From Myxococcales bacterium (GTDB lineage: Bacteria > Myxococcota_A > Polyangia > GCA-2747355): a stretch of 30,590 nucleotides of DNA. The notes under the pieces are model-generated. The model had not been told where the DNA came from. It was given only the letters and a program-made list of their open reading frames with translations, and made no database searches. Below are positions 15,364 to 21,104 of the stretch, in pieces. The stretch's first letter is position 1. Each line of letters opens with the position of its first letter. Location: assembly GCA_020431405.1 (NCBI GenBank), contig JAGQIK010000117.1:1-30590 (forward strand), in the 5' to 3' direction. A program made the translations under genes and the position numbers.

Positions 15364-15380
15364 GGGGCTCGGAGAGCCCC
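15364..15380. terminator. Short GC hairpin between convergent operons.
   Basis: GGGGCTC gga GAGCCCC is a 7-bp perfect stem with a 3-nt loop. It lies between the end of the + operon (15353) and the end of the - operon (15380). Confidence 0.4.
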
Positions 15381-16225
15381 TAGCGATCGTCGAGCGCGCG
15401 CATCAGGCGGTGCCGGTCGCGGCGGCTGGCGAACGGCGGCTCGCCGTCGCCCGCGCCGGCGGGTTGAAGCCCGCCATCGTCGGCCGCGTACCACTTGGGA
15501 AAGAACGACAGCTTCGTCGCGCGCTCGATCTCTTCGATGTCGTCGACCAAGTAGTCGTCGGGTGACTTGTTCTTCGGCGCGTCTTGCGGGATGCGGAAGG
15601 CGAAGACGTCGACGTTGCTCATGCGGTTCCACGGATAGCGGAACGGATCGGCCATCACGTAGAAGTACGCCTCGGGCAGCGGCACCTGGCTGCCGTTGGG
15701 GCGCTCGATGATCTCGGGGTCGTCGCCGAAGATCGGTCCAGCGATGGCCCAGACGTGGTCCTTGTCGGGGGTGTCCTCGATCTTGCGGATGGCGTCTTCG
15801 AGCTTGGCCCACACGCCGGTGTTGAGCGTGCCGCGCTGTGGGCTCATGTTCGACATCAGGAACGTCTCCATCTGCGCCAGGCGGCCGAACTGTTCATTGA
15901 TCGCCTGGTTGGGGACCATGTGACCGACGTGGTAGCCATCGCCGAAGGTCTCCGACCCGACGCGCAGTGCTTCATCGAGGCGCGCATCGTCGTAGTAGAG
16001 GTGCGGACGATCGTAGTCCACGGCGGCCTTGGCGTGCGCTACGCGGTAGGCCGCCCACGTCGGCTGCATGCGCTTGGGGCAGAACCCGACGGCGAAGCCA
16101 TGGTTGACGAGCACCACGACCGGGTTGTCCTTGTCGCCGTTGAGTGGTCGGCCTTGAAAGCAGTAGAGGTCGAGCAAGTAGGCCAGATGTTGGCTGCTCG
16201 GATGGACTGTCGTGAAGTCGGTCAT
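15380..16225 (-). CDS. DNA/RNA non-specific endonuclease of the Serratia NucA / EndoG family (a beta-beta-alpha-metal-finger nuclease), with no signal peptide.
   Basis: The catalytic His motif GYHVGHMVPN corresponds to DRGH. The metal-ligand Asn motif FLMSNMSPQ matches the EndoG motif TFYLSNVAPQ. The N-terminus is not hydrophobic. Its start overlaps the upstream gene's stop (ATGA at 16222-16225). Confidence 0.8.
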   Translation of the reverse strand: MTDFTTVHPSSQHLAYLLDLYCFQGRPLNGDKDNPVVVLVNHGFAVGFCPKRMQPTWAAYRVAHAKAAVDYDRPHLYYDDARLDEALRVGSETFGDGYHVGHMVPNQAINEQFGRLAQMETFLMSNMSPQRGTLNTGVWAKLEDAIRKIEDTPDKDHVWAIAGPIFGDDPEIIERPNGSQVPLPEAYFYVMADPFRYPWNRMSNVDVFAFRIPQDAPKNKSPDDYLVDDIEEIERATKLSFFPKWYAADDGGLQPAGAGDGEPPFASRRDRHRLMRALDDR

Positions 16226-18490: not shown

Positions 18491-19797
18491 AGCTGACCTC
18501 GCAGCGTGGCGAGCGTGGCCTCCGCCGCAGCGCGCTTGTCGGGCGGCAACGCGGGCAGCGACGCCTCGAGCACCTGGATAGCGACGAGCAGATCGCCGCT
18601 GGCGCCAACGGCTTGCAGGCTATCGCGGCGCTCGAACAGCACGGGCGCGACCCAGCGCTTGTCGATGGGCGCGTGCTGCGGGCGCGGGTCGGGCACCAAG
18701 CGCTGTCGCGGCGAGAGCATCAGCTGCGGCCAGCTGAGCGTCTTGACGTCTTCTGGCTTCTGCAGCGCTTCGAGCAGTCCTGCGTAGAAGGCCCGCGAGA
18801 ACGTGCTCAGGTCGCCGAAGTCCATGATGTCGCTCATGCCGATCGCGGCGTGAAAGCGCTTCTGCACCAGCGTGCGTCCCATCGAGCGGCTGGTATCGCC
18901 CGGGCGCGCGCCGCGACAGCAGCCGAGCACCGCGACGAGCGGGTCGAACGCGGGCTTGGCGCGGGCCACGGCGTCGATGATGTCGTCGGGGTAGATGTAG
19001 ATCGAGCCGGGGGCGTTGAGCTCGGCGTCGATCACGTCGGAGACGATCAGATAGGGCGAGCGCGTGGCCTCACCGTGGCAGAAGACGTGAAGCACGTGCG
19101 GGCGAGACGCAGCGAGCGCCTCGAGGAGCGCGGGTCCGCCGCCGCGCTTGATCTCCTCGACGCGCAGGCGCGGCGTGCCGTTGGCCGCGGGCGCGCTGGC
19201 GGCGGGATGCGCGGCGGCCTCCTGCAGCACCTCCTTGTCGGCGGCCAGTAGGTGCAGCGTCGCTTCGCGCCCGTCAGCGAGCACCGTGTCGCGCAGCGCG
19301 CGCCACTCGGGTGTCGCTTTCCAACCTTGCGCGCCGAGCACGGCGAATACGCGCAAGCCCTCGCTGATGTCCACGGCGAAGCGCTCGTCGTCTCCGCGCC
19401 GCGCTACGTCGCGAACGACGCGGCTTACCGGCCAGCCGTCGAGCGAGATGAAGCGCGGTGGGTCGCCGGCGTTGGCACTGGCGCAGAGGCACTCCCAGGG
19501 CAGCGAGTCGACGTCGTTGCCGGCGAGGTCGAGCACCACCGAGCCGCCGTCGACCAGCAGCTTGACCACGCCGTTGTGCACGCCCGGGTTGTCCTTGACG
19601 AGCCCGTCGAACAGGCGCTTGCCCAGCGCCTCGGTGTTGGCGTCGTCGAAGGCGGCGCCGAGGAAGGCCTGCACCTCGGCATCGCTGCTGTCGAGCTCGA
19701 GCGTCGATTCGTGACCCCAGCCGGGGATGTTCTCGGGCCGGTCGAGCTCGACCTTGGTGCCGTCAGGCCGTTCGCGGATGCGCAGCACGAGCTTCAT
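18487..19797 (-). CDS. CHAT / caspase-like protease of 436 aa, starting at MKLVLRIRE.
   Basis: GGAGG lies 6 nt upstream of the ATG at 19795-19797. The His motif HVLHVFCHGEA aligns with CHAT HFAGHG. The Cys motif LVAVLGCCRGA aligns with LVVLSAC. The longer ORF in the track (to 19968) has an Arg/Pro-rich leader that looks like an artefact. Confidence 0.7.
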   Translation of the reverse strand: MKLVLRIRERPDGTKVELDRPENIPGWGHESTLELDSSDAEVQAFLGAAFDDANTEALGKRLFDGLVKDNPGVHNGVVKLLVDGGSVVLDLAGNDVDSLPWECLCASANAGDPPRFISLDGWPVSRVVRDVARRGDDERFAVDISEGLRVFAVLGAQGWKATPEWRALRDTVLADGREATLHLLAADKEVLQEAAAHPAASAPAANGTPRLRVEEIKRGGGPALLEALAASRPHVLHVFCHGEATRSPYLIVSDVIDAELNAPGSIYIYPDDIIDAVARAKPAFDPLVAVLGCCRGARPGDTSRSMGRTLVQKRFHAAIGMSDIMDFGDLSTFSRAFYAGLLEALQKPEDVKTLSWPQLMLSPRQRLVPDPRPQHAPIDKRWVAPVLFERRDSLQAVGASGDLLVAIQVLEASLPALPPDKRAAAEATLATLRGQL

Positions 19798-21104
19798 GCG
19801 TCGCCTCCGTCGCGCCTGCGCAGCGCGTCGACGTCGATCTCGGGCGGCGCGTCGCTGCTCTCGAGGAGCTTGGTGAGGTACTCGAGGGCAGCGCGTTGGC
19901 CGCGGCTGGTGCCGGCCGCGCTGTCGAGGCGCGCGGCGGTCTGGCGCACGAAGGCTTCGGCGCGCCACAGCTCGGGTTGCGCGTCGACGGTGCTCTCGAC
20001 GCGCGCCAACATCGCGTCGAGCTCGCTGCCGCTGCGCGCGTTTTCGAGCGCCTCGGGCGACGAGTAGACGCGCACACCGGGCGCGCCGTGAAGATCCTGC
20101 AGGCTGAACGGCTGGTGCTGCTCGAAGGGCAGCAGCGCGGCGAACAGCGCGTCGCCGACGTCACCGCCGACCTGCTCGCGCGCGTCGAGCACCGCGACCG
20201 TGCCGGCGCGCGAGCGGGCGATCGTGTCAGCCAGGCGCAAGAGCCCGCTGCGCGAGTAGCAGTCGTGCGCCATCACGACGGCCAGCGCGCTGCAGCCCAT
20301 GTAGTCGAGAGCCGCGATGAGCTGTTGGGATCCGACGTAGCGGCTCGCGCCGACGCGCTCGAGGTGCGGCGACTCGGCGACGGCGAGCACGCCGCTGCCC
20401 TGTGTGTACACGCCGTGGCCGACCACGGCGAAGAGATCTACCGGCCCATCGATACTAGTCACCATCCAGCGCAGCCACGGATCCCGGATGCGCCGCGTTG
20501 GCGACGCCGCCGCGCTGTCCGTTAGATCAGCCGGCGGGTGATGCACGCTGACGTTGGGCGGCACCATCTGCTCGACCTGATCGACGAGCGGCGCGTCGGT
20601 GAACACGTGTGTCTGCACGCCGGCGCCGAAGAGCGCGTCGGCGCCGCGCGCCAGCTGCGCACAGGTGTCGGGCACGCTGTAGCGCATCTCGTCGTCGGGC
20701 AGGCTGGCCCAGATCGCGGCGCAGGGCTGACGCCGCCGCGGCGCGTGCGCCACGTCGAGCCCGAGGCGCACCACGGTGCGCGCGAGCTGCGGCGCGAGCC
20801 AGCGCTCCCACGGCAGCAGCGGCAAACGGCTGCTCGCCGGCGCCACCCACAGCCAGACGCCAGGCTCGTTGGCGAAACGATGCGCGTGCGCGGCGACGCT
20901 CTGTAGCCCGGCGGGAAGCGCGTCCGGCGGATCGATCACTTCGGTGGCGGCGAAGCGGATCTCCGAGGGCAGCCCGATTTCGCTGACAGGGCAGCTGCCG
21001 GCGATCTCTCTCGCGTCGCCTTCGACCAGCGCGAGCTCGACGGTGTCGTCAGGCCCGAATCCAACCTCGAGCCGCGGCCCGCTCATCTGTGGCGGCGCTC
21101 TCAT
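19794..21104 (-). CDS. Third caspase/CHAT-like paralogue of about 436 aa, possibly degenerate or regulatory.
   Basis: GGGGAG lies 5 nt upstream of the ATG at 21102-21104. The His-Gly motif LFAVVGHGVYT and the downstream Cys motif LAVVMAHDCYS echo the dyad. Its stop overlaps the next gene's start (ATGA at 19794-19797). Confidence 0.55.
   Translation of the reverse strand: MRAPPQMSGPRLEVGFGPDDTVELALVEGDAREIAGSCPVSEIGLPSEIRFAATEVIDPPDALPAGLQSVAAHAHRFANEPGVWLWVAPASSRLPLLPWERWLAPQLARTVVRLGLDVAHAPRRRQPCAAIWASLPDDEMRYSVPDTCAQLARGADALFGAGVQTHVFTDAPLVDQVEQMVPPNVSVHHPPADLTDSAAASPTRRIRDPWLRWMVTSIDGPVDLFAVVGHGVYTQGSGVLAVAESPHLERVGASRYVGSQQLIAALDYMGCSALAVVMAHDCYSRSGLLRLADTIARSRAGTVAVLDAREQVGGDVGDALFAALLPFEQHQPFSLQDLHGAPGVRVYSSPEALENARSGSELDAMLARVESTVDAQPELWRAEAFVRQTAARLDSAAGTSRGQRAALEYLTKLLESSDAPPEIDVDALRRRDGGDA

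Follow-up and report, generated by a model that had tools for sequence, protein, structure and literature searches.

A gasdermin and a nuclease behind a conserved protease-like cassette: a candidate cell-suicide operon in a Myxococcales genome

Do the five successive open reading frames (ORFs) at positions 15380-21104 on the minus strand of a 30.6-kb contig form one system and, if they do, what would that system do? The contig (JAGQIK010000117.1; all 30,590 nucleotides of it are called the window here) belongs to a Myxococcales metagenome-assembled genome, the ORFs follow one another in the order P1-P2-P3-P4-P5, and the deposited locus tags at the operon are KC503_08790, KC503_08795 and KC503_08805. 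P1, P2 and P3 are protease-like proteins, P4 is a bacterial gasdermin (bGSDM) and P5 is a nuclease. With moderate confidence, we read the five genes as one operon encoding a protease-controlled cell-suicide (abortive-infection-type) system, in which a cassette of protease-like genes is joined to a gasdermin and a nuclease in place of the hydrolase, P0, that accompanies it elsewhere. An earlier note on this DNA had proposed a gasdermin and caspase-like protease operon with a co-encoded EndoG/Serratia-family nuclease, and this is upheld as the best reading of the locus. The argument is carried by features that were observed directly, namely gene order and coupling, family and fold assignments, the conservation or loss of catalytic residues, the conservation of the cassette and the variability of its effectors.

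A conserved cassette and its variable neighbours

The P3 family was searched for in one genome per GTDB species with two conserved peptide patterns taken from a P3 alignment, which gave 211 confirmed stretches. Cassette counts refer to the best 80 of these 211 P3-family loci (L003-L082), from which the family hidden Markov models (HMMs) were also built. P3 is present in all 80 loci, P2 in 79 and P1 in 77, in the same-strand order P1-P2-P3 throughout, and the hosts include Actinomycetota, Alpha-, Beta- and Gammaproteobacteria, Acidobacteriota, Chloroflexota and Gemmatimonadota, among others. The window proteins score 238, 311 and 488 bits against the HMMs of P1, P2 and P3, respectively, with matching order and orientation. 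Directly 5' of P1 lies the gene for P0 in 69 of the 80 loci, or 69 of the 74 whose contigs extend sufficiently far in that direction. This protein, an alpha/beta hydrolase of ~450 amino acids (aa), exceeds the threshold of Pfam DUF900 only barely and conserves the motifs SHGWNN and GHSxG together with an Asp and a His (Ser-Asp-His type).

The nearest relative of the window P3 (50% identity) is itself part of a P0-P1-P2(CHAT)-P3 operon, as is P0123, a relative of P1 with 28% identity. Further examples are L004:5659-11233 and L165:4781-10380, the latter on the conjugative plasmid pBb323S2c of Bradyrhizobium barranii, and a second plasmid-borne cassette occurs in Gemmobacter fulvus. In RefSeq the proteins P0 to P3 are named hypothetical, hypothetical, "CHAT domain-containing protein" and hypothetical, respectively, and PADLOC has no model for P0, P1, P3 or the cassette, giving a weak SAVED_CHAT match for P2 only. 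P1-P2-P3 is a pre-existing, conserved and undescribed cassette.

No gasdermin was found in the 80 cassette loci, and the P0 HMM has no match across the whole window. Since the cassette is conserved elsewhere with P0 and never with a gasdermin in the 80 loci, we take the locus to be an effector-swap variant of it, in which the protease module would arm a pore and a DNase. This changes the picture drawn in the earlier note, where the trio had been placed among gasdermin-plus-protease operons: the three genes are not gasdermin-specific and are usually paired with an alpha/beta hydrolase.

In the reciprocal search, the P4 sequence alone gave no metagenomic relative, and a five-sequence alignment used as query then returned loci, of which the best 80 of 94 (33-42% identical to P4) were counted. 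Neither P1 nor P3 was found in these 80 related bGSDM loci, the only trace of P2 being a weak profile match in L130 (30 bits), and a P5-like nuclease is likewise absent from them. Among 100 flanking ORFs of related gasdermins there are 26 Peptidase_C14, four subtilase (S8), three Trypsin_2 and two CHAT proteins, and no Endonuclease_NS. Outside the window, the exact pairing of P4 with P5 is confined to short contigs of the same population, and no paper in the literature searched contains both of the phrases "bacterial gasdermin" and "non-specific endonuclease". The belief that a gasdermin paired with an EndoG-family nuclease had not been described, also voiced earlier, agrees with both searches. 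Gain and loss at the locus are complementary, in that the window lacks P0 and has a gasdermin and a nuclease, and P4 has no protease partner besides the trio. Within our sampling, the architecture, a cassette minus its usual partner plus a gasdermin minus its usual protease, is unique.

The neighbour of the cassette also varies in other loci. In L031 the P0 slot holds an Endonuclease_NS protein (2e-37; 844-3444, true start probably close to 1740) whose gene ends 19 bp before P1. It is distant from P5 (31% identity over 99 residues) and reads GYGH at the DRGH motif of this family, being like P5 without the Asp-Arg and retaining the Gly-His and the Asn. Its ~300 C-terminal residues have no detectable match, and a lysozyme-like domain that had been considered for its C-terminal half is supported by neither Pfam nor PDB. 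At L063:6040-7104 the P0 slot holds a papain-family (Peptidase_C1) protease. In L075:1-6078 a STAND-like protein is followed by P0 and then P3, with P1 and P2 absent; this protein combines AAA_16/NB-ARC-like and TPR regions with a weak TIR_2 match, and its gene is cut by the contig end. P0-like hydrolases (122-190 bits to the P0 HMM) are found near gasdermins without P1-P3 in three loci: at L087 (P0-like 3-1211, bGSDM 1289-2098), at L116, where the hydrolase is fused to a subtilase S8 (146-3139, bGSDM 3151-3852), and at L131 (7103-8809), where it lies ~4.4 kb from the gasdermin gene and does not directly adjoin it.

Among representative proteins, P3 also occurs in natural fusions, either with CHAT/P2 (P0147 and P0161, about 940 aa) or, in the 1458-aa P0237, with a NACHT domain, where P3 spans residues 3-464 and NACHT residues 626-769 and a long C-terminal region follows. 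On the grounds of the slot swaps, the gene order in L075 and the P3-NACHT and P3-CHAT fusions, we suggest that P3 is the effector-proximal protease, with P1-P2 or STAND/NACHT proteins as the upstream controller and the neighbouring enzyme as the payload.

Coupling of the genes and identity of the proteins

Single-operon organization is supported by 4-bp overlaps, by a short gap with a ribosome-binding site, by the lack of an internal minus-strand terminator and by a 3' hairpin. Two of three ATGA overlaps claimed in the earlier note are present, at 19794-19797 (P1/P2) and 16222-16225 (P4/P5), and the third, at 18487-18490 (P2/P3), reads TTGA instead. The start codon of P3 is the TTG inside this overlap with the P2 stop, a likely start because the deposited NCBI protein consists of the same 458 residues and the N-terminal block that the family conserves starts as early as residue 5. 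The 34-bp gap claimed between P3 and the gasdermin gene is likewise there, with GGAGA as ribosome-binding site. P1 has a GGGGAG ribosome-binding site 5 nt 5' of its ATG at 21104, and the NCBI start is identical. No terminator-like site was seen on the minus strand within the operon, and a sigma-70-type promoter gave no match. The hairpin at the 3' end has a perfect 7-bp stem, overlaps the P5 stop codon and lies between the convergent P5 and a plus-strand gene ending at 15353. Its 51-nt context folds at -27.9 kcal/mol (z = -3.2; 0/200 shuffles equally stable), and it is a possible operon-end terminator, a function proposed for a hairpin that has no U-tract. In all five proteins, neither a signal peptide nor a transmembrane segment was seen.

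P4 is a bacterial gasdermin, as had been suspected from its sequence. It matches PADLOC bGSDM (3.5e-69) and NCBIfam prok_gasdermin (186.5 bits, cutoff 100), its precomputed annotation is Pfam Bact_GSDM (PF26164), and residues 4-240 match PDB 7n51 and 8sl0 (Vitiosangium bGSDM) at about 2e-37. Its AlphaFold2 model is poor (predicted local distance difference test, pLDDT, 50; predicted template modelling score, pTM, 0.52), owing to a shallow alignment, and was used for fold retrieval alone. The eight top Foldseek matches of this model are all bGSDM chains or models (7n50, 7n51, 7n52, 8sl0 and 9a84), with 7n51 at 3.4e-15 and a TM-score of 0.53-0.57, and human GSDMB and GSDME come next, which points to the gasdermin fold that the earlier note had predicted.

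The N-terminus of P4 reads MGNKDP and there is no Cys in the whole protein, so that palmitoylation is impossible. The Gillisia bGSDM likewise has no N-terminal Cys, and the palmitoylated Cys is common in the family but not universal (bioRxiv 10.1101/2021.06.07.447441). The tail of ~55 residues past the last core strand (pLDDT 22-36) ends in an unusual acidic run, DEDGDDDDHDD (DEDGDDDDHDDASNGGAA), and the closest relatives in the alignment either have Cys3 (P0126) or miss the acidic tail. The overall length of 285 aa and that of the tail would suit a short autoinhibitory peptide in place of a large C-terminal domain. A protease gene adjoins 43 of 50 surveyed bGSDMs, and the Runella bGSDM is activated once its partner caspase-like (CHAT) protease cuts off a C-terminal peptide (bioRxiv 10.1101/2021.06.07.447441).

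The earlier description of three paralogous His-Cys dyad proteases holds in part: P1 and P2 are related by profile and the dyads are found in P2 and P3, but P3 is unrelated to the other two in sequence and the P1 family has no conserved Cys. Pairwise BLASTP among the three proteins gave nothing significant, and profiles join only P1 with P2 (hhalign of the two families: probability 96-97%, E 3e-9 to 1e-10, 208-258 columns); a profile comparison of P3 with P1 or P2 gave no link. Judged from residues and profiles, the trio would accordingly comprise a probable pseudoprotease (P1), a CHAT protease (P2) and a clan-CD protease of gingipain-like type (P3).

The window P1 has no match in Pfam, PADLOC or NCBIfam, weak CHAT matches appear in 6 of 49 family members, and the family profile has no match in PDB. 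P1 is a probable pseudoprotease because the column that corresponds to the catalytic Cys of P2 is mostly Pro (50/78 members, with Ala in the window protein) and only 44 of 78 have retained the HG-motif His. Residues W99, E100, W210, G270 and P350 are invariant in the family. Pfam CHAT is matched by 46 of 47 P2 family members (best 6.9e-17), the sole exception being the window copy, which has a weak match (1e-3) to PADLOC SAVED_CHAT. The best PDB match of the family profile is 8tl0 (SAVED-CHAT filament, 9.7e-8). H237, H241, G242 and C294 are invariant in the 47 sequences and all kept in the window copy, and P2 is probably active as a CHAT protease.

P3 has no match in Pfam, NCBIfam or PADLOC. 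Membership of Pfam Peptidase_C25 is not reached, the best value being 0.028 in one of 31 family members, and identity to gingipains is 13-14%. From its model, P3 is predicted to have a caspase-hemoglobinase fold with a gingipain-type two-subdomain catalytic unit; it best resembles gingipain, with separase, CHAT proteins, metacaspases, legumain and caspases next. The SHG histidine (H259) and the two ACC cysteines (C306-C307) do not vary in 31-81 sequences; they follow each other in clan-CD order, 47 residues apart. P3 is an active-looking clan-CD protease of a separate, unannotated family; a search of 1.84 billion representative proteins gave 2787 members of this family at E<=1e-3, of which 349 reach E<=1e-30.

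P5 is a nuclease of the Serratia/EndoG family without a secretion signal, as had been stated. Pfam PF01223 is matched at 8.8e-25 (88.1 bits, cutoff 23) over model positions 17-221 of 223, and PDB matches include EXOG (7e-12), Serratia nuclease (1e-9), NucA (1e-7) and EndoG (4e-6). The catalytic His and the metal-binding Asn proposed earlier are retained, with GHMVP aligned to GHMAP of EXOG and SNMSPQ to SNIVPQ; in the DRGH motif, which reads HVGH (15889-15900), Asp-Arg is replaced by His-Val. The catalytic domain occupies residues 37-246 with short extensions only, the C-terminal one being a tail of ~35 residues, and there is no detectable pro-domain or gating insertion. A search of the operon for an inhibitor-like gene (control of the NuiA/EndoGI type) found none. 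Because P5 has no export signal and the operon no inhibitor-like gene, we infer proteolytic or other post-translational control of the nuclease.

The nearest plasmid-borne relative of P5, from Halomonas (L172:7863-8747), is a canonical DRGH nuclease with an N-terminal hydrophobic membrane anchor, and the P5 lineage therefore looks as if it had turned cytoplasmic. The Halomonas locus was dismissed as informative context, since it encodes an ordinary membrane-anchored nuclease of this type with no gasdermin or cassette nearby. A motif PFA[AS][LR]RD in the tails of P4 (16285-16305) and P5 (15411-15431) was also considered and rejected as a common protease site, as 12.6% of shuffles did equally well (p = 0.13). 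In P4 the motif coincides with the end that the gasdermin family conserves.

Proposed mechanism, rival explanations and known systems

From the families and their arrangement we infer the enzymatic steps, the trigger, the pairing of protease with substrate and an anti-phage role as follows. P1 and P2 would form a sensing and regulating pair, in which the dead P1 restrains, scaffolds or tunes the active P2, as pseudo-caspases do. Upon an infection or stress signal P2 would activate P3, either by cutting it, as in a two-step cascade, or as part of a complex of all three proteins. P3 may then remove the presumed inhibitory C-terminal tail of P4, which would go on to form membrane pores, and P5 would be unleashed at the same time to degrade cellular and phage nucleic acid, most likely through the loss of its own C-terminal tail. 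The predicted outcome is membrane permeabilisation together with nucleic-acid destruction. More tentatively, P1-P2-P3 could be an undescribed immune or cell-death module, present in several phyla, that proteolytically activates interchangeable pro-toxins, which would be mostly the alpha/beta hydrolase and rarely a nuclease, a papain-like protease or a gasdermin. At this locus the module would fire a pore and an EndoG-family DNase together under a two-tier cascade regulated by a pseudo-caspase.

Bacterial gasdermin systems would thereby gain a form of activation not seen in them before. Within the scope of our searches, no other gasdermin operon co-encodes a DNase of the EndoG/Serratia family, and this pairing allows the simultaneous destruction of membrane and genome to be tested in a bacterium. 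P4 also provides a functional label for an unannotated cassette with P3 relatives at 211 places in species-representative genomes, and this link predicts that the cassette delivers toxins or provides immunity under protease control, with effectors that can be exchanged. A conserved pseudoprotease, its active paralogue and an unrelated clan-CD protease would further offer a tractable bacterial model for pseudo-caspase regulation and caspase-type cascades.

Several observations weigh against a single suicide system of this kind. P4 and P5 are placed 3' of P3 whereas P0 and its substitutes stand 5' of P1, so that the exchange is not like-for-like, and the genes 3' of P3 in other loci are mostly housekeeping, with no conserved gene found at that position. 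The architecture is seen in one population only, leaving the coupling without support from recurrence. The window flanks are housekeeping genes with no clear defence-island signal, and no PADLOC model matches P0, P1 or P3. The tail of P4 is modelled with very low confidence and gives no cleavage site, and P4 cannot have the palmitoylation seen in characterised bGSDMs. P5 is without the Asp-Arg of DRGH and may be less active. Finally, the natural fusions of P2 with P3 speak for a stable complex at least as well as for a cascade, and more so than for one of freely diffusing enzymes.

Chance neighbourhood would explain part of this: a decayed P1-P2-P3 without its hydrolase might lie beside a separate gasdermin-nuclease pair whose activator is encoded elsewhere or is not needed. 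The 3' position of P4 and P5, away from the P0 position, and the confinement of the arrangement to this population would then be expected, 7 of 50 surveyed bGSDMs are without an adjacent protease (bioRxiv 10.1101/2021.06.07.447441), and the overall guanine-plus-cytosine (GC) content of P4 (0.67) and P5 (0.65) is below that of P1-P3 (0.71-0.73). We nevertheless consider this explanation unlikely. The gap between P3 and P4 is just 34 bp, contains a ribosome-binding site and has no terminator, GC content at third codon positions (GC3) is even over the five genes (0.88-0.895), unlike the flanks (0.92-0.95), and all invariant residues of P2 and P3 are intact, which argues against decay. A cassette without its usual partner next to a gasdermin without its usual protease is, moreover, what a functional swap predicts. 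The GC3 contrast with the flanks is consistent with a horizontally acquired island; no meaningful direct or inverted flanking repeats and no mobility genes were found at the operon edges.

There is also a small chance that the five genes do form one system in which P5 is no protease-activated suicide DNase, being instead controlled by an unlinked inhibitor, intrinsically weak, or a cargo that leaves through the very large gasdermin pores or after lysis and once outside might attack phage or free DNA in the vicinity of kin cells. The absence of a pro-domain or gating insertion around the catalytic domain, the degraded DRGH motif and the lack of significance of the PFAxxRD motif common to the P4 and P5 tails all agree with such a role, as does the membrane-anchored or exported Halomonas relative, which suggests that the lineage was ancestrally extracellular. 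Protease control of P5 is favoured, on the other hand, by its translational coupling to the gasdermin gene and by the independent Endonuclease_NS protein with GYGH in the effector slot of L031, which suggests a dedicated cytoplasmic effector subtype; bacterial caspase-activated pro-nucleases also exist, with a different nuclease fold (PMC12799240). A third reading, in which the clan-CD proteases themselves kill by broad proteolysis and the other parts are accessory, or in which death is developmental or kin-directed and has no part in phage defence, strikes us as improbable. It is true that two active-looking proteases are kept in nearly all loci examined, that the caspase-like effector of type IV Thoeris reportedly cleaves cell proteins promiscuously, and that myxobacteria undergo developmental lysis; the window has no defence-island context, PADLOC has no model, and no relative was found in viral contigs. 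A bacterial caspase-like immune effector has been described (bioRxiv 10.1101/2024.10.24.620036), which counts for proteases as the killers. Yet the slot next to the cassette is taken by interchangeable toxic enzymes (hydrolase, nuclease, papain-like protease, gasdermin), the P3-NACHT fusion and the STAND-like neighbour have the architecture of immune sensors, and the cassette is distributed patchily among many phyla that are non-developmental and has been found on a conjugative plasmid. The protease-controlled suicide operon thus remains our preferred reading, and it can be compared with systems already described.

Closest are the bGSDM and caspase-like protease systems of Runella, Bradyrhizobium and Vitiosangium (Johnson et al. 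2022), with a bGSDM of ~260-290 aa, a short tail and an adjoining clan-CD (CHAT/C14) gene; P4 is nearest to the Vitiosangium bGSDM (2e-37). Some bGSDMs have more than one adjacent protease (bioRxiv 10.1101/2021.06.07.447441). The systems of Johnson et al. differ in having a single C14/CHAT protease with TPR, LRR, WD40 or NACHT, whereas here a pseudo-CHAT protein, a CHAT protein and a gingipain-like protein are combined, a cassette found in 0/80 related bGSDM loci, with a co-encoded nuclease and without the palmitoylation Cys. The Lysobacter system of CARD, trypsin-like protease and NLR-like ATPase (Wein et al., bioRxiv 10.1101/2023.05.28.542683) also places a multi-gene protease module upstream of a gasdermin. 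Its proteases are trypsin-like with CARD and those of the window are clan CD, its ATPase sensor is absent in this window, and its paper does not mention a nuclease (bioRxiv 10.1101/2023.05.28.542683). Homologous systems of the Pedobacter type are described as relatives of the Lysobacter system in the same preprint, and the gasdermin as one exchangeable effector therefore has a precedent.

Canu (Science 2025, PMC12799240) joins a caspase-family protease to a DNase that is silent until proteolytic activation, and in it bacterial immunity already has a mechanistic precedent for a nuclease armed by a protease. It has no gasdermin, its nuclease is, like those of Hachiman/AVAST, of the metallo-beta-lactamase fold with gating loops, and CanA resembles the MALT1 paracaspase with an Ig-like domain. 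P5, in contrast, is a beta-beta-alpha-metal Endonuclease_NS, and P2 and P3 best match CHAT and gingipain, not MALT1. A cascade from SAVED-CHAT to PCaspase is suggested as a parallel by the best solved relative of the P2 family, 8tl0, which we take to belong to a type III-B CRISPR proteolytic cascade; in that system, a bacterial CHAT protease can reportedly activate a second caspase-like protease. P2, however, lacks a SAVED or other cyclic-oligonucleotide sensor domain as well as a CRISPR context; the second protease of the locus is gingipain-like rather than C14, and a cascade at this locus is hypothetical. The animal caspase pathways, with GSDMD/E pores and DNA fragmentation by CAD/EndoG, similarly join clan-CD proteases, a gasdermin and an EndoG/EXOG-family nuclease in one death programme. 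This is a resemblance of parts and not a descent of pathways; in the bacterium, the modules look recently and locally recombined, and EndoG is kept in check by being sequestered in mitochondria and not through cleavage by caspases.

Feature coordinates and surroundings of the operon

Table 1. Features of the candidate operon in the window, listed from 5' to 3' on the minus strand.
Feature	Position	Strand	Length	Description
P1	19794-21104	-	436 aa	CHAT-like; probable catalytically dead paralogue of P2, probable regulatory or scaffold subunit
P2	18487-19797	-	436 aa	CHAT-family clan CD caspase-like cysteine protease, probably active
P3	17114-18490	-	458 aa	Unannotated clan-CD cysteine protease family with predicted gingipain-like fold; likeliest gasdermin processor
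P3-P4 spacer	17080-17113	-	34 bp	GGAGA Shine-Dalgarno; direct sequence reading
P4	16222-17079	-	285 aa	Bacterial gasdermin (bGSDM), zero Cys, acidic-ended C-terminal tail
P5	15380-16225	-	281 aa	Cytoplasmic DNA/RNA non-specific Endonuclease_NS (Serratia/EndoG/EXOG family)
Hairpin GGGGCUC-UCC-GAGCCCC	15364-15380	-		GC-rich, at P5 stop; possible operon-end terminator

The operon is flanked in the window by genes for a GH35 beta-galactosidase, a protein without a Pfam match, a TauE exporter, a GFO/IDH/MocA oxidoreductase and a TPR protein, the TauE exporter being the gene 5' of P1. Three long ORFs near the operon, of ~373, 890 and 1088 aa, lie at 14232-15353 (+), at 9512-12190 (-) or 9458-12124 (+), and at 27091-30357 (-), the coding strand of the middle one being ambiguous between the two alternatives. 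None of the three has a Pfam match at E<=0.001. At 23139-27113 (-) the window further encodes a TPR-rich protein of 1324 aa, which probably has no relation to the operon; it contains poly-Gly runs and, in its N-terminal half, three copies of the tandem repeat (S)SEVDFGPAS.

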